Positions 2,752 through 53,381 of a DNA stretch of 64,000 nucleotides are shown here, piece by piece. Positions within the stretch are counted from its first letter, which is position 1. The number at the start of each line of letters is the position of its first letter. The notes under the pieces are model-generated. The model was not told where the DNA came from and ran no database searches. It saw only the letters and a program-made list of their open reading frames with translations. The stretch is from Candidatus Omnitrophota bacterium (GTDB taxonomy: Bacteria; Omnitrophota; Gorgyraeia; 2-01-FULL-45-10), in the NCBI GenBank assembly GCA_041650935.1, contig JBAZKH010000005.1, positions 65,574 to 129,573 on the forward strand, read 5' to 3'. The position numbers and the translations under genes were made by a program.

Positions 2752-2776
2752 ATGGTGGTGAGGGTTCGAACCGAAC
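2752..2776 (-). pseudogene. tRNA 3'-end remnant (T-loop, acceptor, CCA).
   Basis: tggtggtgagggttcgaaccgaac has reverse complement GGTTCGAACCCTCACCACCA. Confidence 0.45.
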
Positions 2777-2863
2777 TTAACTCCTGCATATTTTACCATA
2801 ATTCCGACGATACACTAGCCATAAATTCAATGACTGAAAATGTGCGACAGTAGTAATAGCGAA

Positions 2864-4270: not shown

Positions 4271-4315
4271 GAGAGCAGGAAAAATGGAAGGTAAAAGTTG
4301 AGGACATACTGAAAA

Positions 4316-9241: not shown

Positions 9242-9337
9242 GGTAGAAAATTATACCATGAAATATGTTAAGTCAATAGAAAGATATCTACATTTTTGAA
9301 TTCCTAATGCTTTTGAATTATTCACTTCATCAGTGCA

Positions 9338-9775: not shown

Positions 9776-9857
9776 GGCGGTATATTATACAGGCCAAATA
9801 CTCGAAACCAAATTAAAAATAATGAGATTCTTTGCTTGAAGACGGGCAATAAATTTT

Positions 9858-9903
9858 GGCGGCAAAAAAGAGGCATCGGTTATATGCTAACCAATGCCTC
9901 TTT
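9858..9903 (-). terminator. Rho-independent terminator-like hairpin plus T-run, downstream of tRNA-Tyr.
   Basis: On the minus strand, aaaagaggcattggttagcatataaccgatgcctctttt is followed by ttttttgcc. The stem is about 14 bp with one mismatch. Confidence 0.5.
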
Positions 9904-9962
9904 TGACTTCTTAGCAACCCTCTTACTTAGGTCTAAAACCACTATTTCGCACAAGTCTTTGA
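9866..9962. repeat. Direct-repeat copy 2 (partner of 1576-1669).
   Basis: Manual alignment. It lies immediately 3' of tRNA-Tyr. Confidence 0.7.
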
Positions 9963-9994
9963 TGTCACAATAATTAAAAATACTTGAGTAAAGT

Positions 9995-10080
9995 TGGTGG
10001 TGAGGGATGGATTCGAACCATCGAAGGCTTGCGCCGCCAGATTTACAGTCTGGTCCATTTGGCCGCTATGGTACCTCACC
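9995..10080 (-). tRNA. tRNA-Tyr (anticodon GTA), type II with a long variable arm.
   Basis: Reverse complement is GGTGAGGTACCATAGCGGCCAAATGGACCAGACTGTAAATCTGGCGGCGCAAGCCTTCGATGGTTCGAATCCATCCCTCACCACCA. Acceptor stem is GGTGAGG/CCTCACC. The anticodon loop is CTGTAAA. The T-loop is GGTTCGAATCC and CCA is encoded. Confidence 0.9.
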
Positions 10081-10202
10081 ATATTGTTGACTAAAACGGA
10101 GTTAGAATTTCAAATAACAAATTCCAAATGTCAAAAATTCAAACATGGAACTTATCCTACGAAGCCCTACAGTTATCTAAGCGCCTTAAGGGCAAAGTAG
10201 GA

Positions 10203-10252
10203 TGGAGCTAGCAGAGGGGATCGAACCCCCGACCTATGGTTTACAAAACCCC
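10203..10252 (-). pseudogene. 3' half of a split tRNA-Thr(TGT): anticodon loop and 3' stem, variable loop, T-arm, acceptor 3' strand and CCA.
   Basis: Reverse complement is GGGGTTTTGTAAACCATAGGTCGGGGGTTCGATCCCCTCTGCTAGCTCCA. No matching 5' acceptor or D-arm is adjacent. The matching 5' half lies at 11758-11795. Confidence 0.55.
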
Positions 10253-10360
10253 TGCTCCGCTAACCGTATTTGCAATTTTCTCGTCGGAAGACTGAAAACT
10301 ACCTACAACCCACCTCCGTTTGTGGCGCTAATCTGAAAAATATCATTACTTTAAGTAACC

Positions 10361-10705
10361 CTATGCAAATTGAACGCGCCTTTTGGGATGAATCAAGCGC
10401 TCAAGCCTGTGCCTAATAGTACTGTTAAGAGGAATGGCTTGCATTTTAACCGTATAGCCGATAAAAAGCAATACCTTTTCGAGGGTAGAAATACTGCTGA
10501 ATTCACCGTTTTCAATCTTCGAAATATGCTGCTGGGTTACCCCCACCTTATCGGCTAACTGTTTCTGGCTGAGTTTATTTTTAACCCGATATTCGATAAT
10601 CCGTTTTACGATCTTGAGTTTTTGTTCCTCAAGCTCATAAAGCTCCTTAAAATAAGGGTCTTTCAACTTTTCTTTTAAGTGCTCATCTACTTTTTGTAGT
10701 TTCAT
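10361..10705 (-). CDS. higA: XRE-family HTH antitoxin (HigA-like).
   Basis: HTH motif LSQKQLADKVGVTQQHISKIENGE. It lies directly downstream of a HigB/Gp49-like toxin gene. Confidence 0.7.
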   Translation of the reverse strand: MKLQKVDEHLKEKLKDPYFKELYELEEQKLKIVKRIIEYRVKNKLSQKQLADKVGVTQQHISKIENGEFSSISTLEKVLLFIGYTVKMQAIPLNSTIRHRLERLIHPKRRVQFA

Positions 10706-10719
10706 ATTAATCGTCTCCC

Positions 10720-11085
10720 TTATTGTCTACTTAAAAAATCGTTCCTTCTTTCGATGGCTATAATTATCTCATTTTTAGGAGTTTTCCGCGCCTTTTTTAT
10801 AAAGCCATTGGTAAATACTGCTTTATCTTCATGATAAAAGAAATACAAAACCCTGACCGCTCCTTCATGTCCTTTGAATCTCAACTCAAAGATGCTATCC
10901 CCAATATATTTGGCATGAGGAAATGGCAATCTATGACCAAATTCCTCCAATAATTCCTTAACAAAGAAAAACTTTCTTTGTGATTTAAAATCCAATGAAT
11001 CAACAAATTCTTTTACAGGCGATTTGCCTGATTCTGTAAGGTAATAATAAGTCGCTATTTTAGCCACTAACTCCGTACCCCTCAA
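10720..11085 (-). CDS. higB: RelE/ParE-superfamily toxin, HigB/Gp49-like (PF05973-type).
   Basis: IFELRFKGHEGAVRVLYFFYHEDKAVFTNGFIKKARKTPKNEIIIAIERR is typical of Gp49-like HigB toxins. Toxin-first order with an XRE antitoxin following. Confidence 0.7.
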   Translation of the reverse strand: MRGTELVAKIATYYYLTESGKSPVKEFVDSLDFKSQRKFFFVKELLEEFGHRLPFPHAKYIGDSIFELRFKGHEGAVRVLYFFYHEDKAVFTNGFIKKARKTPKNEIIIAIERRNDFLSRQ

Positions 11086-11146
11086 TATAAAGTATACAAC
11101 TAAATAGTTGTATTGTCAAGACTTATTAGCTTCAAGTACTAGCTGG

Positions 11147-11431
11147 TTAAAGTTGAAGCGTTTTTAAACTTTGTTCGATTAGATCTAAGTTTTTCATATA
11201 ATTGACATCATGTGCAATAAAATATGAAACTTCATAATATGTTGTATCAATTTTTAACAGAATGCACCTACTTTGATATTCCTGCTTTTCCCCTTTATGG
11301 ATAAAACTCATTTCATAAGCAGGATTTCCATTAAATGTAATTTTTCTTTCATGTAAAAGCTGTCCTTTTATGCCGCCGCCTTTTGTAGGTCCAAAATGAA
11401 AAATGCTGACGCAAAAAAATTGTAAATACAA
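11147..11431 (-). CDS. Hypothetical small protein (94 aa).
   Basis: ORF only. AT-rich and lies within the insert. Confidence 0.25.
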   Translation of the reverse strand: MYLQFFCVSIFHFGPTKGGGIKGQLLHERKITFNGNPAYEMSFIHKGEKQEYQSRCILLKIDTTYYEVSYFIAHDVNYMKNLDLIEQSLKTLQL

Positions 11432-11490
11432 TCATGCCTTTCCTTTTCATAATTCTTCTTTTCAGGCGCTCCTCTATATTCAGATTAACT

Positions 11491-11507
11491 AGAGCTGGGG
11501 AGAGGAC
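11491..11507 (-). repeat. 17-nt partial duplicate of the tRNA-Thr 3' end (gagctggggagaggact).
   Basis: Identical to 11529-11545 inside the intact tRNA-Thr and lies 21 nt away from it. Confidence 0.5.
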
Positions 11508-11525
11508 TCGGCCGACTTAAATAAT

Positions 11526-11601
11526 TGGAGCTGGGGAGAGGACTTGAACCTCCAACAGCGTGCTTACAAAGCACGAACTCTACCAGTTGAGTTACCCCAG
11601 C
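11526..11601 (-). tRNA. tRNA-Thr (anticodon TGT), intact.
   Basis: Reverse complement is GCTGGGGTAACTCAACTGGTAGAGTTCGTGCTTTGTAAGCACGCTGTTGGAGGTTCAAGTCCTCTCCCCAGCTCCA. Acceptor stem is GCTGGGG/CCCCAGC. Anticodon stem is CGTGC/GCACG with loop TTTGTAA. Confidence 0.85.
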
Positions 11602-11757
11602 CTAAATTTGTAGCGCTATTTGCTAACAAATAACCCTAAACGCTACCAAATCCGCTAAAAATCAAATTAAAAAAAATTGTCTTAACTTATTGCTACTATT
11701 CGTATTACGTTGACTTTAAATGGGTTACGAAACTACTCAAAAACTACCATAGCATTC

Positions 11758-11795
11758 TTACAAAACCATTGCTCTACCAGCTGAGCTATGCTAGC
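11758..11795 (-). pseudogene. 5' half of the split tRNA-Thr(TGT): acceptor 5' strand, D-arm, anticodon 5' stem and loop.
   Basis: Reverse complement is GCTAGCATAGCTCAGCTGGTAGAGCAATGGTTTTGTAA. GCTAGCA pairs 7/7 with TGCTAGC at 10206-10212. ATGGT pairs 5/5 with ACCAT at 10236-10240. Confidence 0.55.
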
Positions 11796-11858
11796 GCCAA
11801 CATTGTTGCGCATGTCTGGTGTCCCGAGACGCTATCTTCCAACTCCCGCGCCAAGAGA

Positions 11859-12722
11859 CTACCCTAATCTCTTTAACACTTCCGGCAGCTTATCTAAAAG
11901 ATCCGTTGCGATAAGACCCAGCGACCCCTTATCTCTTACTGCCAGGTCCCCCGCCAGGCCGTGAAAGTATGTACCGAGCGCCGCCGCGTCAAAAGGCTCC
12001 ACGCCCTGCGCGACAAATGCGGCTATAATACCTGTGAGCAGATCGCCGACGCCGCCGGACGCCATCCCGGGATTACCGGTCCTGTTTATATAAAATTCAC
12101 CGCGCGGCCCGGCAACAACGGTATTATGTCCTTTCAAAACCAGGACGATATTATACTCACGCGCCGTTTCAAGCGCAACATCTTTTCGGAACCTCTCTAT
12201 CTTCGCTATGCTCTCCCCCGTCAGTCTTGCCAATTCTCCCGGATGAGGAGTGAGCACAAGCGGTCCCCTGGCTTTTTTAAGTTCTCCGGCATAGCCGTCG
12301 AAAGCATTTATCCCGTCGGCGTCGAGGACTATAGGCCTATCCAATTTTGCAACAAGTTTCCTGACTAGCCGCGCCGTTTGGTTATTCCGCGAAAGCCCCG
12401 GGCCGATCGCAAAAGAATTACACCTGCCGGCAAAACGCAAAAGGCCGCCTTCGGCATCTATCCCCAGCGAACGCTCTTTCGTCTCAGGGCAGGACTTCAC
12501 CATGACCTCGGTAAGTTTTGCCGCCATTATGCAATGGAGGCTCTCGGGCACCGCCAGCGTCACGAGTCCGCCGCCTGACCTCACTGCCGCCTGACTCGAT
12601 AAGTACGCCGCGCCCGTATAACCGGCGGACCCGGCAACAACCAGGACGTGCCCAAAATCCGCTTTACTGGAATCAAGCGGCCTAATCGGAAATTTCTTTA
12701 TAAGCTTACCTATCGATATCAT
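11859..12722 (-). CDS. nnrD: ADP-dependent (S)-NAD(P)H-hydrate dehydratase (YjeF C-terminal domain).
   Basis: Carbohydrate-kinase-like YjeF_C fold. Motifs include GPGLS, VLDADGIN and GNPGMASGGVGDLLTG. Confidence 0.8.
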   Translation of the reverse strand: MISIGKLIKKFPIRPLDSSKADFGHVLVVAGSAGYTGAAYLSSQAAVRSGGGLVTLAVPESLHCIMAAKLTEVMVKSCPETKERSLGIDAEGGLLRFAGRCNSFAIGPGLSRNNQTARLVRKLVAKLDRPIVLDADGINAFDGYAGELKKARGPLVLTPHPGELARLTGESIAKIERFRKDVALETAREYNIVLVLKGHNTVVAGPRGEFYINRTGNPGMASGGVGDLLTGIIAAFVAQGVEPFDAAALGTYFHGLAGDLAVRDKGSLGLIATDLLDKLPEVLKRLG

Positions 12723-41658: not shown

Positions 41659-42267
41659 TCACCGCTCTATAACTTCCTCGCAGATCTCCAATATCTCTTC
41701 CTTTAGCCCGGGCATCGATTCTTCGATCGGCAATATAATCTTATGAACCTCACCCACAAAATCGATATCACTTATATATTTCAGATTTACGTAAACATTG
41801 AACTTGGCTGAAAAGAAAGCACCCTCCAGCAAAATTGCCGCTATGGCCGTATCGGTGATGAGGTTCTTATTGCCAATCACGGCCAGCTCCTTGCACAGCG
41901 CCAGGGCCGCGCCCGTTATTCTGCATACTTCGAACGGCGGCTCCATCGCCGCCTTAAAGAGGCGGTCCAGTTTCGCCGGATCTTTGCCGAAATTCTTCAG
42001 ACCTGCCGATAATTTCTCATAAGCCTCGGCGTCTTTATCGACAAGCCCCTGAAGCTGAAGGCGATATTCTTCCGATTTTTTTAAAATATTTTTGACTTTA
42101 TCTTCCGCCGCCTTATATTTTGGATTACCGATAGTGTAATTCGCGACCATCGACACCAATCCGGCGCCTATCGCCGCGGATAGGGCCGCGGCGCTGCCTC
42201 CGCCCGGCGCGCACTTCTTTGCGGCAAGGTCGTTTAAATAATCATGCATCGGCCTGTCGTTATACAT
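41659..42267 (-). CDS. fchA: Methenyltetrahydrofolate cyclohydrolase (cyclodeaminase/cyclohydrolase family).
   Basis: CAPGGGSAAALSAAIGAGLVSMV is the family signature. Confidence 0.8.
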   Translation of the reverse strand: MYNDRPMHDYLNDLAAKKCAPGGGSAAALSAAIGAGLVSMVANYTIGNPKYKAAEDKVKNILKKSEEYRLQLQGLVDKDAEAYEKLSAGLKNFGKDPAKLDRLFKAAMEPPFEVCRITGAALALCKELAVIGNKNLITDTAIAAILLEGAFFSAKFNVYVNLKYISDIDFVGEVHKIILPIEESMPGLKEEILEICEEVIER

Positions 42268-43951
42268 ACTTCACCCTCCCCTTTGCATCGATATCGATAT
42301 GCTCGCCCACAGGATGAGAAGGCAAACTCGGCATCGTAAGTATCCGTCCGCAAAGCGCGTATAAGAACCCGGCCCCTATCGACGGTCTTACATCTCTGAC
42401 CGGAAGTACAAAATCTCTTGGACTGCCTTTAATCTTAGGATCGTGCGAAAGCGAAAGATGCGTCTTAGCCATACAGACCGGGAGGTTCGAAAAACCCATC
42501 TTCTTATAGATCTTTATATTTTCCTCCGCGCGCTTTTCGAAATGAACGCCCTTCGCGCCATAAACTTTTACGGCAATCGTCTCTATCTTCCTCTCGATCG
42601 GCATATCCAGCGGATACAGGTAATTGAACCTGCCGCCCGCTTCACATGCGTCCGCGGCGGCACGGGCCAGCTCCAGGCCGCCCCGGGAGCCGTACCGGTA
42701 GACGTCGCTTGTAACACAGCTAAACGCGCCGACCTCAAGAGCTTTGCGTCTGACCAGGTCTATCTCCCTGGCGGTATCCGTTGCGAACCTGTTTATTGCA
42801 ACGATGCACGGGATACCATACAACCGCACATTTTCGATCTGCTTCTCCAGGTTCACACACCCCGCATCCAACAGGTCGAGATTCTCCAGGGAAAGTTCCC
42901 TGCCAAGAGGCTTTCCCACAACCATCTTGAGAACCCCCGAGTGAATCTTAAGCGCTCTTACCGACGCGACGAGAACCGCGGCGGCGGGCTTAAGAGAACC
43001 GGCCCTGCATTTTATGTTAACGAACTTCTCAAGACCGCAATCGGCGCCGAAGCCGGCTTCCGTAACAACATAATCGGCCAGCCCCAGCGCGATCCTGTCG
43101 GCCAGTATCGAACTGTTACCGTGGGTTATGTTCGCGAATGGGCCCGTGTGAATAAAGGCCGGGGTATTTTCGATCGTCTGGACCAGGTTAGGATTTACCG
43201 CATCCGTCAGGATAGCGGCCATAGAACCCGCAACCTTTATGTCGTCGCAGGTAACCGGTTTTGCGCTCCGCGTCAAAGCAAGCACTATCCTGCCGAGCCG
43301 TTTGCGCATATCGGGTATCGATTCCGAAAGAGCAAGTATGGCCATAACCTCGCTGGCCGCGGTAATATCAAAACCCGTGCTGCGCTCAACGCCGGACTCT
43401 CCGCCGCCAAGCCCGATCTTTACGGACCGCAGGGCCCGGTCATTTACATCCATCACACGGCGCCAGTATATCCGCTCCGGATCTATGCCGAGCGCGTTCC
43501 CCCTATAGAGATGGTTGTCGAGAAAAGACGCGGCGAGGTTATGCGCCTGCGTAACCGCATGAATGTCGCCTGTGAGATGGAGGTTTATATCGTCTTCTGG
43601 CGCGACCCGGGAATACCCTCCGCCCACTCCGCCGCCTTTCACACCGAAGAAAGGCCCCATCGACGGCTGCCTGAGACACGCACAGGAGCGCCGCCCCATC
43701 CTGTTGAGAGCCATCGACAGCCCAACGGTAGTAACGGTCTTGCCCTCGCCAAGATGCGTCGGGGTGATCCCGGTAACGACGATATATTTAGATCTCTTCC
43801 TTTGGCGCAGGTTCTTTAAGATATCTATGGCGATCTTTGCTTTATGTTCACCATAGAATTCGATATATTTATTTGGTATGCCTAATGTTGCGGCAATCGC
43901 TGAAATAGGCTTTAGTTTTGCTTCCGCGGCTATCTGGACGTCGCTCTTCAT
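42260..43951 (-). CDS. fhs: Formate--tetrahydrofolate ligase.
   Basis: 563 aa. The N-terminus MKSDVQIAAEAKLKPI and the P-loop region match Fhs. Confidence 0.9.
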   Translation of the reverse strand: MKSDVQIAAEAKLKPISAIAATLGIPNKYIEFYGEHKAKIAIDILKNLRQRKRSKYIVVTGITPTHLGEGKTVTTVGLSMALNRMGRRSCACLRQPSMGPFFGVKGGGVGGGYSRVAPEDDINLHLTGDIHAVTQAHNLAASFLDNHLYRGNALGIDPERIYWRRVMDVNDRALRSVKIGLGGGESGVERSTGFDITAASEVMAILALSESIPDMRKRLGRIVLALTRSAKPVTCDDIKVAGSMAAILTDAVNPNLVQTIENTPAFIHTGPFANITHGNSSILADRIALGLADYVVTEAGFGADCGLEKFVNIKCRAGSLKPAAAVLVASVRALKIHSGVLKMVVGKPLGRELSLENLDLLDAGCVNLEKQIENVRLYGIPCIVAINRFATDTAREIDLVRRKALEVGAFSCVTSDVYRYGSRGGLELARAAADACEAGGRFNYLYPLDMPIERKIETIAVKVYGAKGVHFEKRAEENIKIYKKMGFSNLPVCMAKTHLSLSHDPKIKGSPRDFVLPVRDVRPSIGAGFLYALCGRILTMPSLPSHPVGEHIDIDAKGRVKYV

Positions 43952-44036
43952 TATCGATATTATATCCAGTAATATTATAAGAAGTAATTAAGGATAATAT
44001 CTTAGTATAAAAGGCGTGGAAATGGAAGGGAAAAGT

Positions 44037-44414
44037 TCAGTCCGAGAGCTTCTTCATCTGGATATCGACCTTGGTCGGGATGAGCTTGAACTGCGAGCCG
44101 GTAAGGTTGTCGACAGCCAGCCCGGCAAGCCCAAAAAGTACGGCGTTGCCGGCTATGGCCCCGCTCACGACATGCAGCAGCTTAACGGTCTCGTCCTTAT
44201 ATCCTTCTTTCGTAAAACAAAGGGTATAATCACGGTTTCGTTTCAAGTGCAATTTTACCGGCGTAATATATTTTTCGCCGCCGTCGACAGTAACCGTCGC
44301 GCCGCCGGGATCGGACGATACCGGCACCTTCTGGTACCATCCCGTTATGAGAGTAGCGCATCCCGAGACCGGCACGCACAAAACGACTATTAAGAAGAAG
44401 AGCACAAACCGCAT
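44037..44414 (-). CDS. PEGA-domain lipoprotein.
   Basis: Lipobox-like VSGC followed by the PEGA-like stretch SSDPGGATVTVDGGEKYITP. Confidence 0.5.
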   Translation of the reverse strand: MRFVLFFLIVVLCVPVSGCATLITGWYQKVPVSSDPGGATVTVDGGEKYITPVKLHLKRNRDYTLCFTKEGYKDETVKLLHVVSGAIAGNAVLFGLAGLAVDNLTGSQFKLIPTKVDIQMKKLSD

Positions 44415-44419
44415 ACAGA

Positions 44420-44965
44420 CTATCTCTTTCTGCTATACCGGCCCATAATCTGGCCATCGGCCAAAATGTGGCCGGCCATGGCCCCTTCCAGGTCCTTCTT
44501 CGTCGCTCCCGGGGCAAGTGAAATCATCGTATCCAGCGCATAGACCTTGAAATAGTATCTGTGCACACCGCTCGGCGGGCACGGGCCGCCGTATCCGATC
44601 TGCCGGGAATCGTTTACCCCCTGGACCGAACCGTCTGCCAATACCTCTTCGCCAGGCACATTTTCGACCAGCCCCTTCGACTGAGGAGGCATGTTAAAGA
44701 TGACCCAGTGCACCCATGTTCCGCGCGGCGCATCCGGGTCGTCGCATATAAGCGCCACGCTCCGCGTCCCGGGCGGAATGTCCGACCACGCAAGAGGCGG
44801 CGATACGTCTTTACCGTCACAGGTATACTTACCCGGTATCGCCTCCTCATCCTTGAAAGCGCTGCTAGTAACAGATAGCTTCACAGGTCCTTCTCCTTTC
44901 GAATACACGGCACCATGGACAAAGAATACAGTTACCGCTATAATAACAAGGCCGGCGATCCTCAT
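44420..44965 (-). CDS. YbhB/YbcL-family PEBP (Raf-kinase-inhibitor-like) protein, secreted.
   Basis: The motifs DPDAP and HRYYFKVYALD are PEBP signatures. Confidence 0.8.
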   Translation of the reverse strand: MRIAGLVIIAVTVFFVHGAVYSKGEGPVKLSVTSSAFKDEEAIPGKYTCDGKDVSPPLAWSDIPPGTRSVALICDDPDAPRGTWVHWVIFNMPPQSKGLVENVPGEEVLADGSVQGVNDSRQIGYGGPCPPSGVHRYYFKVYALDTMISLAPGATKKDLEGAMAGHILADGQIMGRYSRKR

Positions 44966-45735
44966 TTTGCGATCTCCAGTTTATATAGATCGCTGTACGT
45001 ACCCGTCAGCCATAAATATTTACCGTCCCAAACTATACCCGTAGTCTTCGACACGGGCGAGCGGAACGCTCCGACGATCTCCCATCTCTTCACGTCCACT
45101 TTATATACAAGCTGTTCATACCAGCTCGTTATCCATAGGTTCGCGCCGTCCCATGCTATATGCGCCGGCTCCTGGATATCCTGTATCGATATCCTGTTAG
45201 AGTAGTTCAAGTTGCCGTCGAACTCCAGCAGTTCGAACCTGGTCCCCAGCCCCCTCTTCCATATGATCACAAATAGACGCTCGCCGTCCCATAAGATACC
45301 CGCCGGATGAGATCCGGGAAAAGATACCCATAGTTCCTTTTCAAGTTTATTATCCTCAAGCCGCGCAAGATAGAGTTTCTGCTGGTCCCAATCCGTGGTA
45401 AAAAAAAGGTCACCGGTTTTTTTTACGACGGCCTCGGTGAAATCCGCCACGGGCTCTATGTCGGAAACGAGACGGCCGGAATCCATATCGATCACCCAGA
45501 TATTACCGCTCTTTCCGTTACTGATCCATATACAGCCGCCGTTCAAAGAAAGCCCCTCGTGCCACCCCTTAGGCAGTGTTATCGTCCCGACAACTTTTAC
45601 CGGGATGGTTTCATATCTTTGAGATTTTTTCAGGTTTATGGGGCGGTCCTGGAACGAAATAGCCTGCCCTGCGTTTAGAAGAAGCAGGCCAAGCAAGACA
45701 ATGATAAAGCTATTCTTCGGCAATTTTTTGGACAT
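44962..45735 (-). CDS. Secreted beta-propeller protein, glutamine cyclotransferase-like.
   Basis: Repeated WDGxxLW(V/I) blades. About 257 aa with a signal peptide. Confidence 0.4.
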   Translation of the reverse strand: MSKKLPKNSFIIVLLGLLLLNAGQAISFQDRPINLKKSQRYETIPVKVVGTITLPKGWHEGLSLNGGCIWISNGKSGNIWVIDMDSGRLVSDIEPVADFTEAVVKKTGDLFFTTDWDQQKLYLARLEDNKLEKELWVSFPGSHPAGILWDGERLFVIIWKRGLGTRFELLEFDGNLNYSNRISIQDIQEPAHIAWDGANLWITSWYEQLVYKVDVKRWEIVGAFRSPVSKTTGIVWDGKYLWLTGTYSDLYKLEIAK

Positions 45736-46084
45736 CTTTGTCGGGGCTTTTTTCCGGGAGGATTAATTTCGATTTCAGATACCGAATTTGTTCGGCAAGT
45801 TCCTTATTCTCATTTTCAAGCTTCTTCAGCCGGCCATATACATCCTCGAATTTCCGCGCGGCGTATTCCTCGGGACCCTCCGCGACGTATGTCGTTTCGT
45901 TACGGCGGTGCATCCTCCCGCCCTCCGGAATCAGCAGGGTAACGTCATTATTTATCTTCCTGGTCTCCATGCCGGGCTGGTTCATTTCGTCATCGCCCTG
46001 CGGAAAATTATTACTTTGCGCGATAAGCGGCGCCGAACTAAATATGGCGAGGACCGTAATATAGAGAATGCAATTCTTTTCCAT
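45710..46084 (-). CDS. Hypothetical small secreted coiled-coil protein. The start was moved to the internal Met of the 139-aa track ORF.
   Basis: MEKNCILYITVLAIFSSAPLIAQS signal peptide. The C-terminus reads LENENKELAEQIRYLKSKL. Confidence 0.35.
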   Translation of the reverse strand: MEKNCILYITVLAIFSSAPLIAQSNNFPQGDDEMNQPGMETRKINNDVTLLIPEGGRMHRRNETTYVAEGPEEYAARKFEDVYGRLKKLENENKELAEQIRYLKSKLILPEKSPDKDVQKIAEE

Positions 46085-47009
46085 ATCTCTCCAGGATATA
46101 ATGACAGAAGAAACAATTATCGCTCGCACGCCCGGGAAATTTCACGCCATCCCTGACGAGCCTCTTACGAAGACCGCTTAATCCTGAGTTAAATATAGCA
46201 CAAACGATCCTGTTTTGGCGAATATTTTTCCTGATGCGCGAAAGAGAATCCTTATTTATGTTGCCTACGCTAAGTAGAGGCGACTCGGACGCATAACCGC
46301 AGCATGGTTTTACCTCTCCCGACGGTTCTACGAAGAAGACGTTACCGGGTCCCTCGCAGTAATCTTCCTTAAACCACTTCCCATCCCACGGCGCCTTAAG
46401 CCCCCCGGCTCTACCGGCTGCCGAAAGGCCGATCTTCGCTATCTTTATGAAGAGCGCGTCCGATCCGATATGCTGACGGTAAGTCCCGAAATCCTCAAGC
46501 CGCGCGCCAAGAAGACGCGCCAATCTCGATAACTTCCTCCGTGTCGGCACCTCTTTGCCCGTCACATAAATTATCGATATAAGATCGGGCCTTCTCCATA
46601 CCTCCTGGGCCGTCTTTATAAAGCGGGCCAGTTTATCAACATGCTGTTTATGATAAGCATCTACGCTTATAGATATGGCACCGTCGTATCCGGCCTTGAA
46701 TAGCCTATGCAGTGTATCTTCCAGGTCGCGGTCGTTCTTGTACCACACTCCATTTGTGACTATCCGCGTAAAGAAGAAACCCTCCTTAACGGCAAATTTA
46801 ACTACCGAATACAAAAAATTCCGAGCTAAGAACGGCTCACCACCCGTGAACCCGACCCTATCTATGCCGCCCTTCCTGCATCCTGAAAGGAAGGCTTTTG
46901 CGGAGGCCGCAGACAGGATCGCATGCGTCTTTCTGATACTGCAATGGGGGCAGGACAGATTACAATCCGTAGTGGGAGAAAACAGTATTTCTTCGGGATA
47001 AAATGGCAT
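46038..47009 (-). CDS. Radical SAM protein with a SPASM/twitch-like C-terminal Cys-rich domain.
   Basis: CNLSCPHC (CxxxCxxC) is at the N-terminus. The C-terminal cysteines lie at CEGPGNVFFVEPSGEVKPCCGY and CFFCHY. Confidence 0.7.
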   Translation of the reverse strand: MPFYPEEILFSPTTDCNLSCPHCSIRKTHAILSAASAKAFLSGCRKGGIDRVGFTGGEPFLARNFLYSVVKFAVKEGFFFTRIVTNGVWYKNDRDLEDTLHRLFKAGYDGAISISVDAYHKQHVDKLARFIKTAQEVWRRPDLISIIYVTGKEVPTRRKLSRLARLLGARLEDFGTYRQHIGSDALFIKIAKIGLSAAGRAGGLKAPWDGKWFKEDYCEGPGNVFFVEPSGEVKPCCGYASESPLLSVGNINKDSLSRIRKNIRQNRIVCAIFNSGLSGLRKRLVRDGVKFPGRASDNCFFCHYILERYGKELHSLYYGPRHI

Positions 47010-47012
47010 GCT

Positions 47013-49097
47013 TTATTTTAACATATCATTAATCTTGGCGGTATAATTTTGGAGCATATTCTTCATATCCGCTTCCAGCTTCTTTCTGCTGGGCTCGAGA
47101 TAAACTTTGCGGTATTTGGCTTCCTGCTGAAGGATGTAGTCTTCCCCGAAGGCCCTGTCTTTCTGCCTCTTTATCTTCTCAAGTATCTTATCGAGCTCCG
47201 AAGGAGAAAGTTTTTCCAGTTCGTCCTTCGATATATTACCGCTCAATATATTTTTAAGCTGCAATGCCGCCATATTCTTCGACAGGTCTTTAATCACATT
47301 TTCATAGTACGGCTGGGAAGCTTTCTCGTATTCCAGGAGTATTTTCCTGTTCGCGAAGTCAAGCTCGGAGAAGATAGCTTTTATATTGGCCGTGTCGCCT
47401 TTCTGCAGAAGGTCCGGCAGGGCCTGGGCTAACAGTATATTCGCTACAGCGTTTAAAAAATCATCTTCTATCTTCGTTAGTTCCGGGTTTATATTGCCGC
47501 CCTCCTGTATCTTGGCCGTATTGTTGAGGAGAGCTCTAACGGCATCAAGTACCATCTTTTGATCCTCTGTGGGATTTTTCAGGATAACGGCAAAGCGCAT
47601 GGCTATCTGCATGTCGGCAGCGCTCATGCCCTTGACAGGAACGGCGAAGGCCGATTCTTTGAGCCGGTCCCCGGCCATAACCAGTTGAGGGGTTGCCATA
47701 CCCGCCAGGTCCCGGGCAAGAGAAGTTTTGCCGTTAAGCATATCCTTAAGGATCGAACCGCTATTTGCGGCATCAAAACGGCCGTCGGTGTTATTGGAAG
47801 TCAACATATTCGAATAATCAAACTTGCGTTCGCCAAGGTTATTATAGAATAGCGGGCTTGTAACGGGAGACAGGCCGACAATGGGAGAATACGTATTCAG
47901 CGCCTTCGCGTTAGGCGCCCATACGGAGTCGTCCATGGAAGCATATGCGCCGCGAGCAACGTCTGTGGGAGCCAACAGCATCTGGCCGCCATCATAATAA
48001 TCTATGGTCTTAGTTGAAACGTCGGCAACATATATGCCGACGCCGGCTTTAAACCAGCGCAGCGGACCACTCTCACCGCTTGGTTGATCTGTCGCATAAT
48101 CGCTCGAAGATGTGACAATCACGTTACCGGAAGTATCGAATAGCCGTATGCTCTCATAATAAAAGTTATTGTTTATGGATGATGTCACATATGTTGTAAG
48201 GTCCGATGGCTGTACTCCCACAGCTGTCTCACCCACAACATTTATCCCATACGTAGTATGAAAGTTGTTATTCATGGCGGTAATGGATGAATACTCCGCC
48301 CATATGCCCGAAGCGCCTTCATCACCGTTAAAGGTGCAATTTAATACGGTAATACCGGAACTATGTTCTGCCATGAAACCATTAGCGCTGCCTGAGTTTA
48401 TCATGAATCCGCTGACATATGTCGATCCATTAACTCCGGCAGCGGTAAAACTGCCGTTAATTACGGTAGGCGTACCGGCAAAATCCCTCTCCCCTGTTTC
48501 GCCATATCCGCCGTACAGGCTTATCCCGCCCCTGACGGTTATATTCTCGGTATATGTTCCTGCCCTTACTATGATCCTATTCCCCGAACCGGCTTTGTCC
48601 ATAGCCTGCGCTATGGTCAGGCCGCCTTCGAATCCGGCATAAACATATCGTATGCCGTTTATAATTTCGGCTATTAAATGCCCCGCGGAATTTTTTTCCT
48701 GGTTGGTACCGCTGCCTATCTTAATGTTACCTATATCCGCACCGATCGATACGCGGTTTGCGGCTATTCGAGTATTCTTGGCACTGCCCTGTTTCTTCTG
48801 TAACGTAACCGTGGTCCGATCCTTCTGCTCCCCCGCGGCCGTAATTGTGTTGTGTACCTTGCCCTGGATATACGCCACGACGTTATCTAAGAGCGACTTC
48901 TTGGCAGACTGCTGGGCCTTGATAGCCTCAGCTTGATATTTCGCGGCATTGATATAACCGGGAGAAAACATGCTGGATGTGTTACTTCTATAGCGGCTAT
49001 TGTCATCCGCGGCAGTAGAGATACCGATCCACACAAACGACACGATTATCGCTATCGGCAACATCACCAGCATCATCCTCAATATTTTTGCATTCAT
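47013..49097 (-). CDS. Secreted right-handed beta-helix (pectin-lyase-fold-like) protein, paralog 1.
   Basis: Signal peptide. The central region has Asn/Gly/Ser-rich beta-helix repeats. The C-terminal ~230 aa are conserved with the neighbour. Confidence 0.6.
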   Translation of the reverse strand: MNAKILRMMLVMLPIAIIVSFVWIGISTAADDNSRYRSNTSSMFSPGYINAAKYQAEAIKAQQSAKKSLLDNVVAYIQGKVHNTITAAGEQKDRTTVTLQKKQGSAKNTRIAANRVSIGADIGNIKIGSGTNQEKNSAGHLIAEIINGIRYVYAGFEGGLTIAQAMDKAGSGNRIIVRAGTYTENITVRGGISLYGGYGETGERDFAGTPTVINGSFTAAGVNGSTYVSGFMINSGSANGFMAEHSSGITVLNCTFNGDEGASGIWAEYSSITAMNNNFHTTYGINVVGETAVGVQPSDLTTYVTSSINNNFYYESIRLFDTSGNVIVTSSSDYATDQPSGESGPLRWFKAGVGIYVADVSTKTIDYYDGGQMLLAPTDVARGAYASMDDSVWAPNAKALNTYSPIVGLSPVTSPLFYNNLGERKFDYSNMLTSNNTDGRFDAANSGSILKDMLNGKTSLARDLAGMATPQLVMAGDRLKESAFAVPVKGMSAADMQIAMRFAVILKNPTEDQKMVLDAVRALLNNTAKIQEGGNINPELTKIEDDFLNAVANILLAQALPDLLQKGDTANIKAIFSELDFANRKILLEYEKASQPYYENVIKDLSKNMAALQLKNILSGNISKDELEKLSPSELDKILEKIKRQKDRAFGEDYILQQEAKYRKVYLEPSRKKLEADMKNMLQNYTAKINDMLK

Positions 49098-49108
49098 GGC
49101 TGCGCCTG

Positions 49109-51190
49109 TTATTTTTCGGTAGTTTTTAACGCATTATTAATCTTCCCCGTAAAGTCTTTCAACATGTTTTTCATATCCGCTTCCAGTTTCTTCCTGCTGG
49201 GTTCGAGATAGGCATTACGGTATTTGGCTTCCTGCTGCAGTATATACTCCTCCTCAAAAGCTTTATCTTTTTGCATCTTTATCTTCTCCAATATCTTATC
49301 CAGCTCCGAAGGAGGCAGTCTCTCGAGTTGTTCCCTTGACATTTCGCCGCTCAATATATTTTTAAGCTGGAGTAACGCCATATTCTTGGATAGATCTTTT
49401 ATGACGTTGTCATAATACGGCTTTGCCGCCGTATTGTACTCCAGGAGTACCTTCTTATTTACCGATTCAAGCTCGGAAAATATGCTCTTTATGTTGGCAA
49501 TGTCGCCCCGCTTAAGAAGGTCGGGCATGGCCTGGGTCAGGAGGGCAAGCGCGACCGCCTGCAGTAACTCATCCGAAGCTTTCTTTATCTCGGCCGATTT
49601 CGCGTCTTCGCTCAGTTTGTCCGCCTCTTTCATAATAAGCTCTATCGCGTTCAATATGGCCCTCTGGTCTTCACTGGGATTTTTTATTATATTCGCCAGT
49701 ATCGAGGCTATATTCATATCCATGAGATCTATGCCGTTTAACTGGATTGCCAGGGCATCCCGGTTTTGGGCATTACTCATTATCCTGGCCAAAAGCGCAG
49801 GATCTACCGGCATAGACCCTCCGTCGAAAAGAGCATCCTTATTACCGAGCAGGCCTTTAAAAATATCTCCCAGCTTACCGGTCTTGTATTCATCCGCAAG
49901 ATACGGACCTATACCGGAGAGATTTTTATTGAAGTCGGTCGCATACAACCAATCATCCATCATAAAGGGTTTATTATCGATATTAAGTATGTTAACGGTC
50001 TGCGTCGAACGGGCCTTCGCATATGAGGCGCTTGAGTTATCATCGAGAAGAATATTTTGACCTGCGCCGGATATGATATTATTATTCAGTAAAAAGGTTG
50101 AATCATCACCCGATATTCCTTTGCCCTTAGCCCCGCCGGGAATAACTATAAACCCCGGCCCAGCCGTACCTACTCCACCCGATAAACCTTTGATCTCGTT
50201 ACTATCGGCGGTTACGCTGGAATTTATTGCCCTTATACCGTAAAACAGGCCGTTTAATTGGGTCCTTGATATGGAAACGGTAGAATTAGATACGTATAAC
50301 CCCTGCTGTATAAGAGAAGTGGAGCAATTGTCGATAGTTACGGAGTTGGAATTCCTCACGGCGATCCCTGCCACATACCCGCCGCCCCACGTCTTCAACT
50401 CGCTTAAGAACTTCTCGAAAATCAGCATCCCGCCAGGCGGCTGTATGACGTTGAACCCGCCTATTTCCACCGTATGCGAGGCGTCGTTCACGCCGTCTAC
50501 CACTATAGTCCCCACTACGTTCGACCGGCCGGACCTGTCGCCGTTATCATCGTAGCCGCCATATACGCTTATCGCTTTCGTTATGACAAAATTTTTGTAA
50601 CCGCCGGCGCTGTTCGACGCCGCGCCGCTCCTTGCTATAACGACATCTCCTGCCATCGCCCTGTCTACCGCCGCCTGTATAGTGTCAACGGTATCACCGG
50701 TAAATCCCGCATAGTGATAGCGAACTCCGTTAATTATTTCGGACATCATCGCCTTTCCGCTGTCCGATACCAAAGCACCATTTGCGTCACGCTGATCGGT
50801 GCCCGTCCCCCTAGCCACATGGGACGGCGAATGGCCAATGATGCTAGCCGCCCTTGCCGAAGCCGTCTTGTTGGAACTGCTCTGTTTCTGCTGCAATTTA
50901 GGGGCGTTTGCGGCCTTCTCCTGCGCCGCCTGGTCTACCTTATTAGATGTTTTACCCAATACGAATTCGGCAACATCGTCGAGGAATGACCTCTTGGGCG
51001 TCTGCTGTCTTATGATGGCCTCCGCCTGGTACTTGGCAGCGTTTAGATACCCGGGAGCAAATACAGAAGAAGAGTTGCTGTGATAACGATTATTGTCGTC
51101 CGCATATGCGAAAGGCACACAGACAAGCAGAGCACTACTGCTTATCAACATTATCAAAATATAATATTTAATATTTTTAAACGTGCACAT
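49109..51190 (-). CDS. Secreted right-handed beta-helix protein, paralog 2.
   Basis: Central beta-helix repeats include VRNSNSVTIDNCS..VSNSTVSISRT.. The N-terminal ~60 aa and C-terminal ~230 aa are highly similar to paralog 1. Confidence 0.6.
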   Translation of the reverse strand: MCTFKNIKYYILIMLISSSALLVCVPFAYADDNNRYHSNSSSVFAPGYLNAAKYQAEAIIRQQTPKRSFLDDVAEFVLGKTSNKVDQAAQEKAANAPKLQQKQSSSNKTASARAASIIGHSPSHVARGTGTDQRDANGALVSDSGKAMMSEIINGVRYHYAGFTGDTVDTIQAAVDRAMAGDVVIARSGAASNSAGGYKNFVITKAISVYGGYDDNGDRSGRSNVVGTIVVDGVNDASHTVEIGGFNVIQPPGGMLIFEKFLSELKTWGGGYVAGIAVRNSNSVTIDNCSTSLIQQGLYVSNSTVSISRTQLNGLFYGIRAINSSVTADSNEIKGLSGGVGTAGPGFIVIPGGAKGKGISGDDSTFLLNNNIISGAGQNILLDDNSSASYAKARSTQTVNILNIDNKPFMMDDWLYATDFNKNLSGIGPYLADEYKTGKLGDIFKGLLGNKDALFDGGSMPVDPALLARIMSNAQNRDALAIQLNGIDLMDMNIASILANIIKNPSEDQRAILNAIELIMKEADKLSEDAKSAEIKKASDELLQAVALALLTQAMPDLLKRGDIANIKSIFSELESVNKKVLLEYNTAAKPYYDNVIKDLSKNMALLQLKNILSGEMSREQLERLPPSELDKILEKIKMQKDKAFEEEYILQQEAKYRNAYLEPSRKKLEADMKNMLKDFTGKINNALKTTEK

Positions 51191-51355
51191 AACTCCTCCA
51201 TGATTTACATAAGTTAAGCATAAATGTCATAAATAACCACCACAAATCAGCCTTACGCCGCTTTGCTATCTATATTATATCTTTCTATTCTCCTAATAAG
51301 AAGTATACACTATTTTCAGGTCATTGGGATGGAAAATGCAATAACTTTTTGATTT

Positions 51356-52309
51356 CTAACCTTGCGGGGTAAGCGGTGCGGCAGGCTGAATTGTCAAGGC
51401 CTGTATATCTGTATGGGTACCGATGTTTTTAACTTCCAGCTTCGGGTCGATCTTCTTCAATAGCCCCTTTAAAACCTGGCCGGGTCCTATCTCTATAAAT
51501 GATTTTATTCCGCTTGCGGCAACAAGTCTTATCGACTCTTCCCATAGCGTCTTTGTATTCACCTGGGAAACCAGGTTCTCTTTTATAATTTGTGCGTCGC
51601 TCTGTATTTTGGCATCTACGTTGCTGACGAATGAAATGGCTGGGGCGGATATCTGTATCTTATCTATATACTCTTTCAGCTTATCTCTGGCCGGCGTCAT
51701 AAGCGAGGAATGAAACGGTCCGCTGACATCGAGTGTCAGGATCCTCTTCGCGCCCTTTTCTTTCGCCAGGCTGGCGAAGAGCTCGATATTCGTGGTCTTG
51801 CCGGAAACCACTACCTGCCCCGGACAATTAAGATTAGCAACCTCACATCCTATCCCCTTGCATAAAACTTCTATCGAACTCAGGTCCATGCCGATAACGC
51901 ATGCCATCTTTCCCGGATTTTTATTCGACGCCTCCTCCATAAGCTCTCCGCGCCGCTTGACAAGGATGAGCGCGTCATCAAATGATATACTGCCCGCCGC
52001 CGTCAGGGCTGAATACTCGCCTAGGCTCAAGCCAAGGCTGAATTTTGGGACGATCTGCCCGTAAAAAGAAGATGATTGAAATGCTTTCAGCGCGGCAATG
52101 CTGGTAGTAAGTATTGCTGGTTGGCTATAGCGGGTGGTTGAAAGTTCTTCCTTCGGCCCTTCGAAACATAATTTCTTTACGTCAAACTTCAAAATATCGT
52201 TGGCTTTGTCAAAGATTTCTTTGGCGGTGGGGTAATTTTCATACAGATCTTTACCCATCCCTACAAATTGCGCTCCCTGCCCAGGAAATATTAGCGCTGC
52301 GTCTGTCAT
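51356..52309 (-). CDS. fabD: Malonyl CoA-ACP transacylase.
   Basis: Motifs GQGAQ and GLSLGEYSAL. Confidence 0.9.
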   Translation of the reverse strand: MTDAALIFPGQGAQFVGMGKDLYENYPTAKEIFDKANDILKFDVKKLCFEGPKEELSTTRYSQPAILTTSIAALKAFQSSSFYGQIVPKFSLGLSLGEYSALTAAGSISFDDALILVKRRGELMEEASNKNPGKMACVIGMDLSSIEVLCKGIGCEVANLNCPGQVVVSGKTTNIELFASLAKEKGAKRILTLDVSGPFHSSLMTPARDKLKEYIDKIQISAPAISFVSNVDAKIQSDAQIIKENLVSQVNTKTLWEESIRLVAASGIKSFIEIGPGQVLKGLLKKIDPKLEVKNIGTHTDIQALTIQPAAPLTPQG

Positions 52310-52394
52310 ATTATTTTGGATTCTTTAAAATTTGACATTGGGCTTTTGGATTTATTTTGTCATTCGGATTTTGACATTTGGATTTGATCATCAA

Positions 52395-53381
52395 CTACCA
52401 CTCGATAACAATAGCTCCCCACGTAAGGCCGCCGCCAAATGCATCGAGAAGCATCTTCTCACCTTTTTTGATCCTTCCCGCTTTCACCGCTTCTACCAAA
52501 GCTACGGCACTCGATGCAGCGGACATATTCCCATATTTTTCGATGTTCAAATATATCTTTTCTTTTGTAAGCCCCATCCTCTTGGCCACCGCATTTAAGA
52601 TACGTATATTGGCCTGATGCGGAATGACAAGGCTTATGTCATCGGCTGTCAGCCCCAGTGGTTTTGTTGCCTCAAGCGCCGCATCCGCCATAATCTTGAC
52701 GGCATGTTTGAATAGTTCTGCACCGTTCATCTTGATAAAATGAAGGTTCCCTTCGATACTCTTCTTCGTTGGAGGTATGCGGGAACCGCCTGCAGGAAGC
52801 TTTATAAGGTCTCCCTGTTTACCGTTTGCGCCGAGATAAACGGATAGTATCCCGCCTTTTTCCACAGGCCCGAGGACAGCCGCACCTGCGCCGTCGCCGA
52901 ACAGGACGCACGTGTTCCTGTCAGTCCAATCGGTTATAGCGGAAAGTTTTTCGGCGGCTATGACAAGGGCGTGTTTATACGCCCCTGACGCGATAAATTC
53001 TTTCGCGATCGCCAGGCCATAAATAAAACCGGAACAGGCAACACTTACATCGAACGCCGGCACCGTCCTGGCGCCTATCTTCTCCTGGACAAGACACGCG
53101 GTAGCGGGAAAGAACATGTCAGGCGTGATTGTCGCCACTATTATCAGGTCTATGTCCGCCGCGGTTAATTTCGCGTCGGCGAGCGCGCGCCTGGCCGCTT
53201 CAGCCGCCATGTCGCTCGTAGCCTCATCCTGGCGGGCGATCCGGCGCTCTTTTATGCCGGTGCGCGTGGTGATCCACTCATCCGTAGTGTCGACCATCTT
53301 TTCCAGGTCTTTATTTGTCAGGATCTTTTCCGGAAGGTATGCCCCCAAGCCTATGATACCAACCTTTTTCTCCGTGCACAT
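52395..53381 (-). CDS. fabH: 3-oxoacyl-ACP synthase III.
   Basis: Standard FabH motifs including ACSGF and HQAN. Confidence 0.9.
   Translation of the reverse strand: MCTEKKVGIIGLGAYLPEKILTNKDLEKMVDTTDEWITTRTGIKERRIARQDEATSDMAAEAARRALADAKLTAADIDLIIVATITPDMFFPATACLVQEKIGARTVPAFDVSVACSGFIYGLAIAKEFIASGAYKHALVIAAEKLSAITDWTDRNTCVLFGDGAGAAVLGPVEKGGILSVYLGANGKQGDLIKLPAGGSRIPPTKKSIEGNLHFIKMNGAELFKHAVKIMADAALEATKPLGLTADDISLVIPHQANIRILNAVAKRMGLTKEKIYLNIEKYGNMSAASSAVALVEAVKAGRIKKGEKMLLDAFGGGLTWGAIVIEW

Follow-up and report, generated by a model that had tools for sequence, protein, structure and literature searches.

Cytoplasmic radical S-adenosylmethionine (SAM) enzymes of the SPASM type, such as anSME and QhpD/QhpC, modify polypeptides bearing an export signal before their translocation, and in the qhp (quinohemoprotein amine dehydrogenase) system a small modified subunit is found together with a beta-propeller subunit. 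The peptide epimerase EpeE/YydG of Bacillus subtilis (TIGR04078; PDB 8ai1-8ai6) uses its Cys223 as the hydrogen-atom donor (PMC5682303, PMC13012085). In our study, a locus from a metagenome-assembled genome (MAG) of Candidatus Omnitrophota has been analyzed within a stretch of 64 kb, which is called the window here. The locus is a run of seven genes, in which two tandem genes for secreted proteins of one family (paralog B and then paralog A) are followed by a radical SAM gene and by genes for a small exported or membrane-anchored protein, a beta-propeller, a PEBP/YbhB-family protein and a PEGA-domain lipoprotein. A first-pass annotation had taken the paralogs as beta-helix proteins and the radical SAM enzyme as their candidate maturase. 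Our analysis favors, with somewhat better than even confidence, the reading that two unrelated units have been brought together here, namely the paralog pair and a radical SAM envelope module. The module is conserved and, by its occurrence in relatives, independent of the paralogs, and it is likely that the enzyme does not serve them as a dedicated maturase.

The radical SAM enzyme carries the motif CNLSCPHC at residues 16-23 and passes the Pfam gathering thresholds for Radical_SAM (48.5 vs 29.5 bits) and for SPASM (PF13186; 29.5 vs 21.5 bits). Its best NCBIfam match was TIGR04078 YydG (58.7 bits, E = 6.4e-16), below the equivalog cut-off of 300, and the alignment was full-length, with residues 15-303 placed on profile positions 10-289 of 309. 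YydG was also the best PDB sequence match (E = 3e-9). The AlphaFold (AF2) model was built from 28 homologues with a predicted local distance difference test (pLDDT) score of 90, and its best Foldseek matches were the EpeE/YydG entries 8ai1-8ai6 (TM-score 0.73-0.75, E about 1e-14; for 8ai1, TM-score 0.73/0.74 and E = 9.7e-15). The next fold matches, CteB, BlsE, anSME and SkfB, were well behind at a TM-score of about 0.55. No tRNA or rRNA modifier and no curated housekeeping family was matched in NCBIfam. The earlier suggestion of a SPASM/twitch-like enzyme is borne out by this profile classification, which points to the peptide- and protein-modifying SPASM/twitch branch with EpeE/YydG as the nearest relative. 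Because its score lies below the cut-off and its locus is devoid of the EpeX/EpeP/EpeAB context, the enzyme is, as judged from sequence and model, an uncharacterised distant relative of EpeE/YydG and not a member of that family. Identities as viperin, MoaA, PqqE, HxsC and Tes were rejected, since these matches, like every other NCBIfam match apart from YydG, were limited to the N-terminal radical SAM core; prokaryotic viperin (pVip, NF038283), which gave the sole PADLOC matches, was rejected likewise as it covered only the core residues 13-139.

Eight cysteines (C16, C20, C23, C218, C236, C237, C299 and C302) were found to be invariant in 28 Omnitrophota homologues, and the homologues read from Gemmatales, Elusimicrobia and Treponema have the same eight. 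The conserved cysteines of the C-terminal part are five in number, against the seven of a canonical SPASM domain with two clusters, which fits a single-cluster twitch-like site. A putative auxiliary [4Fe-4S] site is assigned to the invariant C218, C236, C299 and C302, and its CxxC aligns at the sequence level with the C-terminal CxxC region of EpeE. The C236-C237 pair aligns with YydG chain residues 247-248, which are the native C222-C223 (the chain offset of 25 was checked with 8ai6, in which D210A is found at chain position 235), and C237 is therefore taken as the counterpart of EpeE Cys223. The two enzymes share a length of about 320 aa, a CX3CX2C motif near the N-terminus and, in the C-terminal part, a twitch/SPASM-type domain with the pattern C...CC...CxxC, in which the CC pair is aligned. 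On the other hand, the identity is about 18%, Asp210 of EpeE is not conserved, and our locus has neither an EpeX-like short precursor nor EpeP/EpeAB, the neighbors being Sec-exported proteins. The gene lists of the fetched related loci also contained no peptidase or ABC-transporter Pfam family beside the module. EpeE/YydG is found in Firmicutes whereas the present family occurs in Omnitrophota, Planctomycetota, Elusimicrobia and Treponema, with some transmembrane fusions to periplasmic domains. In case of anSME the resemblance is conceptual and the fold match is much weaker (TM-score about 0.53); in contrast to anSME and QhpD, our enzyme has a single auxiliary-cluster motif and its candidate substrates are almost free of cysteine.

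More than 120 Omnitrophota homologues of the enzyme were found with E < 1e-100. The gene order of the relatives is pta-ackA-rpmF-plsX-fabH-fabD, followed by rubrerythrin-radical SAM-small protein-propeller-PEBP (with PEGA in some) and by gpsA-hom-thrC. The order from rubrerythrin to PEBP recurs in L003, L005, L006, L008, L096, L098 and the P0004 locus (related loci and proteins are cited by our own labels); the L001 contig starts just upstream of the radical SAM gene, and the part visible there has the order radical SAM-small protein-propeller-PEBP. Rubrerythrin is placed immediately before the radical SAM gene in 9 of the 11 distinct Omnitrophota loci with a readable upstream region, and by the gene calls its end lies 2-15 nt before the radical SAM start or up to 58 nt inside the radical SAM gene. 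This rubrerythrin has a rubredoxin-like C-terminal domain (e.g. L003:7377-7985, L006:6319-6897 and L014:9423-10001), and it could protect the iron-sulfur clusters of the radical SAM enzyme or supply electrons to them. The PEBP gene comes directly after the propeller in nearly all the Omnitrophota loci examined, and an orthologue of the PEGA lipoprotein, 69% identical, is present at the equivalent position in L098. The small protein is missing from L010, L015 and L016, and L014 retains the rubrerythrin-radical SAM pair only. Literature searches gave nothing that matched this module.

Full-length homologues of the radical SAM enzyme with 35-42% identity were also found in Gemmatales, Isosphaera, Elusimicrobia and Treponema. 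Clustering of the neighbors around 32 non-Omnitrophota homologues revealed no common partner; the genes seen there code for TamB, a BamB-like giant protein, PGK, thioredoxin, an NYN protein, DegP and a GT4 glycosyltransferase. The Gemmatales enzymes (L020, L022, L032 and L033; about 10930-11070) carry a Gly-rich C-terminal extension, GV.GGGG.VG.W...TGEL..LG, which is not present in Omnitrophota. This wide occurrence in several phyla without a common neighbor would agree with a stand-alone enzyme of the housekeeping type, the substrate of which (a conserved protein or a small molecule) is encoded elsewhere, and the neighbors of which are incidental passengers of a compact and highly syntenic genome. 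The position of the Omnitrophota copies within the long housekeeping block from pta to thrC and the reduced L014 locus may be taken in the same sense. Such an explanation seems rather unlikely, since three fusion architectures, described below, recur in many independent sequences and link the enzyme to periplasmic proteins via a transmembrane segment, since the overlaps of 4 nt and 47 nt (translational coupling) with the small-protein gene are maintained, and since no curated housekeeping family is matched.

The relation of the module to the paralogs was assessed from both sides. Paralog-family genes are located upstream of the module in six related lineages, namely the window (two copies), the P0004 locus (678 and 688 aa), L006 (681 aa, as L006/L007), L096 (719 aa), L098 (a family gene of 471 aa and a gene of roughly 1075 aa split by a gap) and L005 (a C-terminus at the contig end). 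No paralog-family gene was found near the radical SAM gene in the Omnitrophota loci L003, L008, L010, L014, L015 and L097, the upstream slot being empty or otherwise filled in L003, L008, L010/L011, L015 and L097, and none was present in the flanks (up to 10 kb) of the homologues from the other phyla. In a neighbor-joining tree, of which the topology alone is cited because the tree is weak and its bootstrap values were unusable after re-rooting, the loci bearing paralogs group together in one sub-clade, inside which L008 and L097 are placed as losses. This topology is consistent with one inherited insertion of the paralogs and later losses. In the relatives with a readable spacer, the paralog gene is followed by a spacer of 81-89 nt, then by a rubrerythrin of 192 aa and then by the radical SAM gene. 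The spacers of L006, L096 and L098 contain sigma-70-like elements (-35 TTGAAA/TTGAAT/TTGCAA, 17 nt, -10 TATGAT/TATCAT/TATAAT) and a strong AAGGGGAGGG Shine-Dalgarno sequence before rubrerythrin; this sequence is kept in L005, the shorter spacer of which also retains the -10 element. From these sequences, the module appears to be a transcription unit of its own in the relatives.

The paralog family, in turn, is found in a second genomic context. Its arrays lie directly behind a HAMP-GGDEF gene in L012 (6401-9970) and L013 (3743-7181), and in L094 (151-11596) an open reading frame (ORF) of matching size, 437 aa, precedes four tandem family copies (1161, 599, 720 and 734 aa). The flanks of these three arrays (about 8-10 kb upstream and up to about 4 kb downstream) contained no radical SAM-module genes of the window type; the single radical SAM gene in the L013 flanks, about 3 kb upstream of the array, is an unrelated one of the Radical_SAM_C type. 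HAMP-GGDEF proteins are cyclic di-GMP synthases, and this adjacency hints at a control of the family surface proteins linked to cyclic di-GMP.

It may still be supposed that the enzyme is the maturase of the paralog family and modifies the N-terminal module or the C-terminal domain in the cytoplasm before Sec export, and that it acts in trans on family copies encoded elsewhere in the genome. This would account for the co-transcription of both in the present genome across a gap of 3 nt and for the family genes just upstream of the rubrerythrin-radical SAM operon in six related lineages. The enzyme falls in a branch that modifies proteins or peptides, and the residues F44, P46, G47, Y48 and N50, invariant in the N-terminal module of the paralog family alignment, are a possible recognition or target site. 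The supposition is nevertheless improbable. The conserved promoter and rubrerythrin intervene in the relatives with a readable spacer, full-length enzymes occur in other phyla and in Omnitrophota lineages with no paralog-family gene seen nearby, and the L012, L013 and L094 arrays stand without module genes in their flanks. Moreover, the weak sub-clade fits a single inherited insertion, and no conserved Cys/Ser motif is present in the family. The dedicated maturase/beta-helix partnership proposed at first is not sustained by these findings.

In the window itself, the ATG of the radical SAM gene lies 3 nt past the stop codon of paralog A and is not preceded by a Shine-Dalgarno sequence. No rubrerythrin (by tblastn), gpsA or hom was found in the 64 kb, and the conserved promoter-like spacer element is also missing from the window. 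The tail of paralog A, which ends in KINDMLK, is 3-5 residues shorter than those of paralog B (KINNALKTTEK) and of the relatives (KINGMLKNTK, KINSALRLPDKK and INDALNTAEKK). Since rubrerythrin and spacer are missing, the paralog A tail is shortened and only 3 nt are left, the junction is read as a deletion scar. Roughly 0.7 kb would have been lost by this deletion, comprising the final codons of paralog A, the spacer with its promoter and the rubrerythrin gene. On the other side of the module, the PEGA gene is followed after a gap of 85 nt by fhs and then by a cyclodeaminase-like gene (window 41659-44036), where the relatives have gpsA-hom-thrC; it follows that the locus was rearranged to either side of the radical SAM module. 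A scan of 43800-52500 for promoters and terminators gave counts at the shuffled expectation, which neither supports nor refutes internal signals. The co-transcription assumed in the first-pass annotation thus stands for this genome, in which the radical SAM gene is, by its spacing, almost certainly co-transcribed with paralog A (a 3-nt gap, no Shine-Dalgarno sequence and no promoter or terminator signal above the shuffled level). It does not extend to the relatives, in which a separate promoter appears to be present. The gap of 3 nt resembles a tight operonic coupling, yet it is best explained as a deletion scar.

The small protein was named in the first-pass annotation as an alternative target of the enzyme, and this suggestion has gained ground, as its gene is the one most tightly coupled to the radical SAM gene in the relatives. 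It overlaps the radical SAM gene by 4 or 47 nt, starts up to 30 nt after it or is fused to it in frame. The protein contains an invariant core, GME-RK...V..L-P-G-.M...N..T...E, which is followed by a leucine-zipper coiled coil; the invariant residues are G38, M39, E40, K43, L51, P53, M58, N62, T65 and E69. A PDB profile search revealed coiled coils only, and nothing useful was obtained for the small protein or the propeller by Pfam at E <= 10, PHROGs or PADLOC. Among the 29 members of the small protein family, all those with a named source are from Omnitrophota. The last 15 codons of the radical SAM gene (ERYGKELHSLYYGPRHI region; window 46038-46084) are an alternative frame of the signal peptide of the small protein. 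A radical SAM tail of the same kind is seen in P0002 and P0016, and the other relatives have the 4-nt overlap or the in-frame fusion; it seems that frame changes convert split and fused states of the two genes into each other. For the mature small protein, the predicted N-terminal residue is Gln in 6 of 10 sequences and Glu in 2 of 10, and a pyroglutamate capping of this protein is a possible link to the propeller, the next gene, with its faint glutaminyl-cyclase-like matches.

Three types of fusion were found in the relatives. The radical SAM enzyme is joined through a transmembrane segment to the small protein in P0009, P0020 and P0026, and to the propeller in P0113, P0024, P0050, P0055, P0110 and P0116 (551-559 aa) and also in L015 and L016. 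The propeller is joined to PEBP in L003:9343-10593, L005:2128-3390, L097:10364-11590 and L098:6717-7949. Each of the radical SAM fusions retains an AxA-type signal-peptidase motif past the hydrophobic segment; from these two features it is predicted that the radical SAM part lies on the cytoplasmic face and the partner outside, with one polypeptide spanning the membrane.

The chemistry proposed at the outset, a thioether or a formylglycine-like change, has found no support. The mature paralogs, the small protein and the propeller have one or no cysteine each, and no invariant or nearly invariant cysteine was found in the paralog or small-protein alignments. A search for the anSME-type target motif [CS]x[PA]xR in the paralogs, small protein, propeller, PEBP and PEGA lipoprotein gave one site, at position 343 of paralog A in the variable center, and none at a conserved position in the paralogs, small protein or propeller. 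A conserved Cys/Ser target motif, for which the first-pass annotation had suggested a search of the paralogs and the small protein, was thus not found, and the scarcity of cysteine together with this result makes a thioether or formylglycine chemistry unlikely. The small protein is, by its gene coupling and invariant core, the best local candidate for the substrate.

The course of events in the preferred reading of two joined units may be described as follows. The first unit would be a tandem secreted pair from a diversifying family of the surface or adhesion type. The second would be a conserved envelope module with an EpeE/YydG-like radical SAM core, which is normally led by rubrerythrin with its own promoter; behind this core come a small coiled-coil protein, either bitopic or secreted, the propeller, PEBP and sometimes the PEGA lipoprotein. 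After the putative deletion of roughly 0.7 kb, the module of this genome would be read through from the paralog genes, and translation of the radical SAM enzyme would depend on this read-through and on termination-reinitiation from paralog A. The cytoplasmic enzyme, with SAM and two [4Fe-4S] clusters, may then abstract a C-alpha hydrogen from a polypeptide, and Cys237 may re-donate a hydrogen, by which the radical would be quenched and the residue epimerised. The enzyme would act at the inner membrane, where its Sec substrate has yet to be exported, and in this clade the likeliest substrate would be the invariant core of the co-translated small protein. The modified small protein would work with the periplasmic propeller and PEBP, and these two may either process the product or cooperate with it. 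The small protein as the specific substrate and epimerisation as the chemistry are proposed only tentatively.

A number of observations weigh against this interpretation. The radical SAM family is known here from sequences and a predicted fold alone, and the TIGR04078 score falls far short of the cut-off. The Asp210 of EpeE, which is mutated in 8ai6, is not conserved and aligns with Val224; the adjacent Asn223 is invariant. It would be unusual for an enzyme to be fused with its own substrate through a transmembrane segment. The small protein family (n = 29) is missing from the radical SAM-propeller fusion lineages (L010, L015 and L016), from L014 and from the other phyla, and it cannot therefore be the universal substrate of the radical SAM family. 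The adjacency in six lineages shows that the neighborhood of paralogs and module is not a one-off, and a functional link in trans is conceivable. Further, the deletion is deduced from the relatives and not from reads, and a MAG assembly error at the junction could also be involved.

The remaining genes of the module were also examined. The propeller gave only weak propeller matches in the PDB profile search, including the glutamine cyclotransferase 3nol (E = 0.023). Its likeness to glutaminyl cyclase (PF05096) is faint, as every Glu_cyclase_2 match of its homologues lies below threshold and the window propeller has no Pfam match, PF05096 included. PEBP is a clear member of the PEBP/YbhB family, with scores above the cut-offs for Pfam PBP (PF01161; 149.3 vs 24 bits) and TIGR00481 (160.3 vs 57.75 bits), and the PEGA lipoprotein passes Pfam PEGA (29.2 vs 20.8 bits). 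To our knowledge, no function has been described for bacterial periplasmic PEBPs in such a context. The family name of PEBP, which refers to lipid binding, brings in the idea that the enzyme modifies a membrane lipid or a lipid-linked intermediate and that PEBP and the propeller handle the product in the periplasm. The Omnitrophota module sits between plsX-fabH-fabD and gpsA, the fused forms of the enzyme are tethered to the membrane, and weak matches to the lipid radical SAM enzymes Tes/GDGT-MAS were obtained. These matches cover only the generic radical SAM core, whereas it is a peptide epimerase that is matched in sequence and fold over the full length. In the other phyla the gene is not beside lipid genes, and the window has fhs after the module instead of gpsA. 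A lipid substrate is accordingly regarded as very improbable.

The paralog pair which precedes the module was compared in sequence and in predicted structure. The two proteins are related far beyond chance (BLASTP E = 8e-126, 38% identity overall), so their paralogy is confirmed; their description as near-identical even at the nucleotide level was overstated, as 47041-47300 and 49141-49400 agree in 81% over 237 nt with a longest exact common run of 23 nt. After divergent signal peptides, the N-termini match by about 76% over roughly 25-30 residues. At the C-terminus about 150 aa are strongly conserved (63-80% identity) and the preceding 60-80 aa are weaker. The third codon positions agree in just 45-70% among identical residues, from which it follows that the duplication is old; a recent gene conversion between the paralogs is ruled out by this synonymous-site identity.

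Neither paralog had a Pfam match even at E <= 10, and searches with PHROGs and PADLOC gave nothing useful. The AlphaFold model of paralog A, which was built from an alignment of 7 sequences and is poor overall, so that its fold search is only suggestive, had a mean pLDDT of 50, with a confident beta-rich architecture of short strands only at residues 125-260. Its Foldseek matches were weak (E 0.01-0.1) and mixed with helical proteins of low probability; the most probable ones were pectin methylesterases, a PL6 lyase and phage tail-fibre/tailspike proteins. The C-terminal residues 495-694 were all-helical in this model (pLDDT 60-87). For the conserved C-terminal domain, earlier described as coiled-coil-like, a helical structure is thus predicted, and no relative was found among the PDB sequences. 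The beta-helix assignment of the two window genes is only moderately supported: a Pfam match is missing, the model has a pLDDT of 50 and the Foldseek matches to beta-helix proteins are weak, but 6 of 61 family members have confident Beta_helix/NosD domains. It is plausible that both are beta-helix proteins.

An exhaustive search with the C-terminal domain revealed 185 cluster representatives among 1.84 billion proteins, against only 5 relatives found with the full-length paralog in a word-indexed database. A metagenome scan with the same domain gave two loci including L094, the back-translated patterns being too degenerate. The domain stands at the C-terminal end in essentially all the matches listed, which are mostly proteins of 600-1080 aa. 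In the family alignments a signal peptide is followed by a conserved N-terminal module of about 40 aa (SSVFSPGYINAAKYQAEAI), a cap-like motif (I..A...A..GD.V....G.Y ... YGGY.E.G.RD) typical of beta-helix caps, a variable center and a C-terminal domain of about 220 aa. Among the 61 members scanned, the centers had confident matches to Beta_helix/NosD in 6, DUF1565 in 3 and dockerin in 2. The family copy beside the radical SAM module in L098 (L098:30-1445) carries Dockerin_1, and long NGN..FW repeats make up the center in P0122 and in the split L098 gene. The family resembles right-handed beta-helix proteins (PF13229, PF05048 and PF07602) and tailspikes by the cap-like motif and by the matches in 6/61 and 3/61 members, and its conserved ends with an exchangeable center are like those of receptor-binding proteins; unlike in known beta-helix proteins, the N-terminal module and the helical C-terminal domain of 220 aa are without known relatives. 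The family is a previously undescribed scaffold, both conserved end domains being undescribed and without a Pfam domain. It is restricted to Omnitrophota, and its tandem arrays and swapping of centers are the behavior of diversifying surface or adhesion proteins.

All the genes of the locus are on the minus strand of the window (Table 1). The coordinates and gene sizes of the first-pass annotation, its CxxxCxxC motif and the 47-nt overlap were borne out by the ORF list and a check of the sequence. From paralog B to PEGA the gaps are 11, 3, -47, -26, -4 and 5 nt, which means that the small-protein gene overlaps the radical SAM gene by 47 nt, the propeller gene overlaps the small-protein gene by 26 nt and the PEBP gene overlaps the propeller gene by 4 nt. 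A GGAGGAG Shine-Dalgarno sequence precedes paralog B inside the spacer that follows fabD. Away from the locus, window positions 1-12000 are low in GC (38-44% vs about 51% elsewhere) and include a protein with Schlafen/AlbA_2, HATPase_c_4 and HTH domains (2864-4270, minus strand) and an ORF of 1641 aa without a Pfam match (4316-9241, minus strand). This region may be a mobile or defence island.

Table 1. Features of the locus in window coordinates, in order of transcription, and promoter-like spacers of related loci.
Feature	Position	Strand	Basis or remark
fabD	52309-51356	-	directly upstream of the fabD-paralog B spacer
fabD-paralog B spacer, 165 nt	51191..51355	-	sole sizeable non-coding gap upstream of the seven-gene run
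Paralog B, 693 aa, Sec-type secreted	51190-49109	-	ORF; Omnitrophota family with conserved ends and variable center
Paralog A, 694 aa, same family as paralog B	49097-47013	-	ORF; BLASTP vs paralog B
Paralog A/radical SAM junction, 3 nt	47010..47012	-	between paralog A stop and radical SAM ATG
Radical SAM enzyme, 323 aa, cytoplasmic, twitch/SPASM-type C-terminal domain	47009-46038	-	Pfam, NCBIfam, PDB, fold
Small exported or membrane-anchored protein, 124 aa	45710..46084	-	ATG 46084, stop 45710; signal peptide or transmembrane segment
Secreted beta-propeller, 257 aa	44962..45735	-	repeated WDGxxLW blades (alignment); faint glutaminyl-cyclase-like signal
Secreted PEBP/YbhB-family protein, 181 aa	44420..44965	-	Pfam PBP, TIGR00481
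PEGA-domain lipoprotein, 125 aa, lipobox VSGC	44037..44414	-	last gene of the tightly packed run
Promoter-like spacers of relatives	L006:6238-6318, L096:8366-8447, L098:4728-4816, L005:155-216		in front of rubrerythrin

Omnitrophota are ultra-small and possibly host-dependent bacteria, and the paralog family probably contributes to the diversity of their surfaces. As for the radical SAM family, a broader proposal can be made, which we consider unlikely at present. Its members would form a large multi-phylum group of membrane-associated protein C-alpha epimerases or related backbone-radical enzymes that modify Sec-exported envelope proteins before translocation, and in the Omnitrophota the enzyme, a cleavable signal or transmembrane segment and the periplasmic partner or substrate could be one polypeptide. 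The fusions of the enzyme through a transmembrane segment to a periplasmic domain offer a direct handle for testing it. If true, this would couple a radical enzyme of the cytoplasm to the periplasm in a new manner, and it would be the first case of D-residues installed in exported proteins of diderm bacteria. Radical SAM epimerisation, which acts on small antimicrobial peptides of Firmicutes, would then reach into envelope biology, and this would apply to Omnitrophota, Planctomycetes, Elusimicrobia and spirochaetes, the cell surfaces of which are poorly understood.

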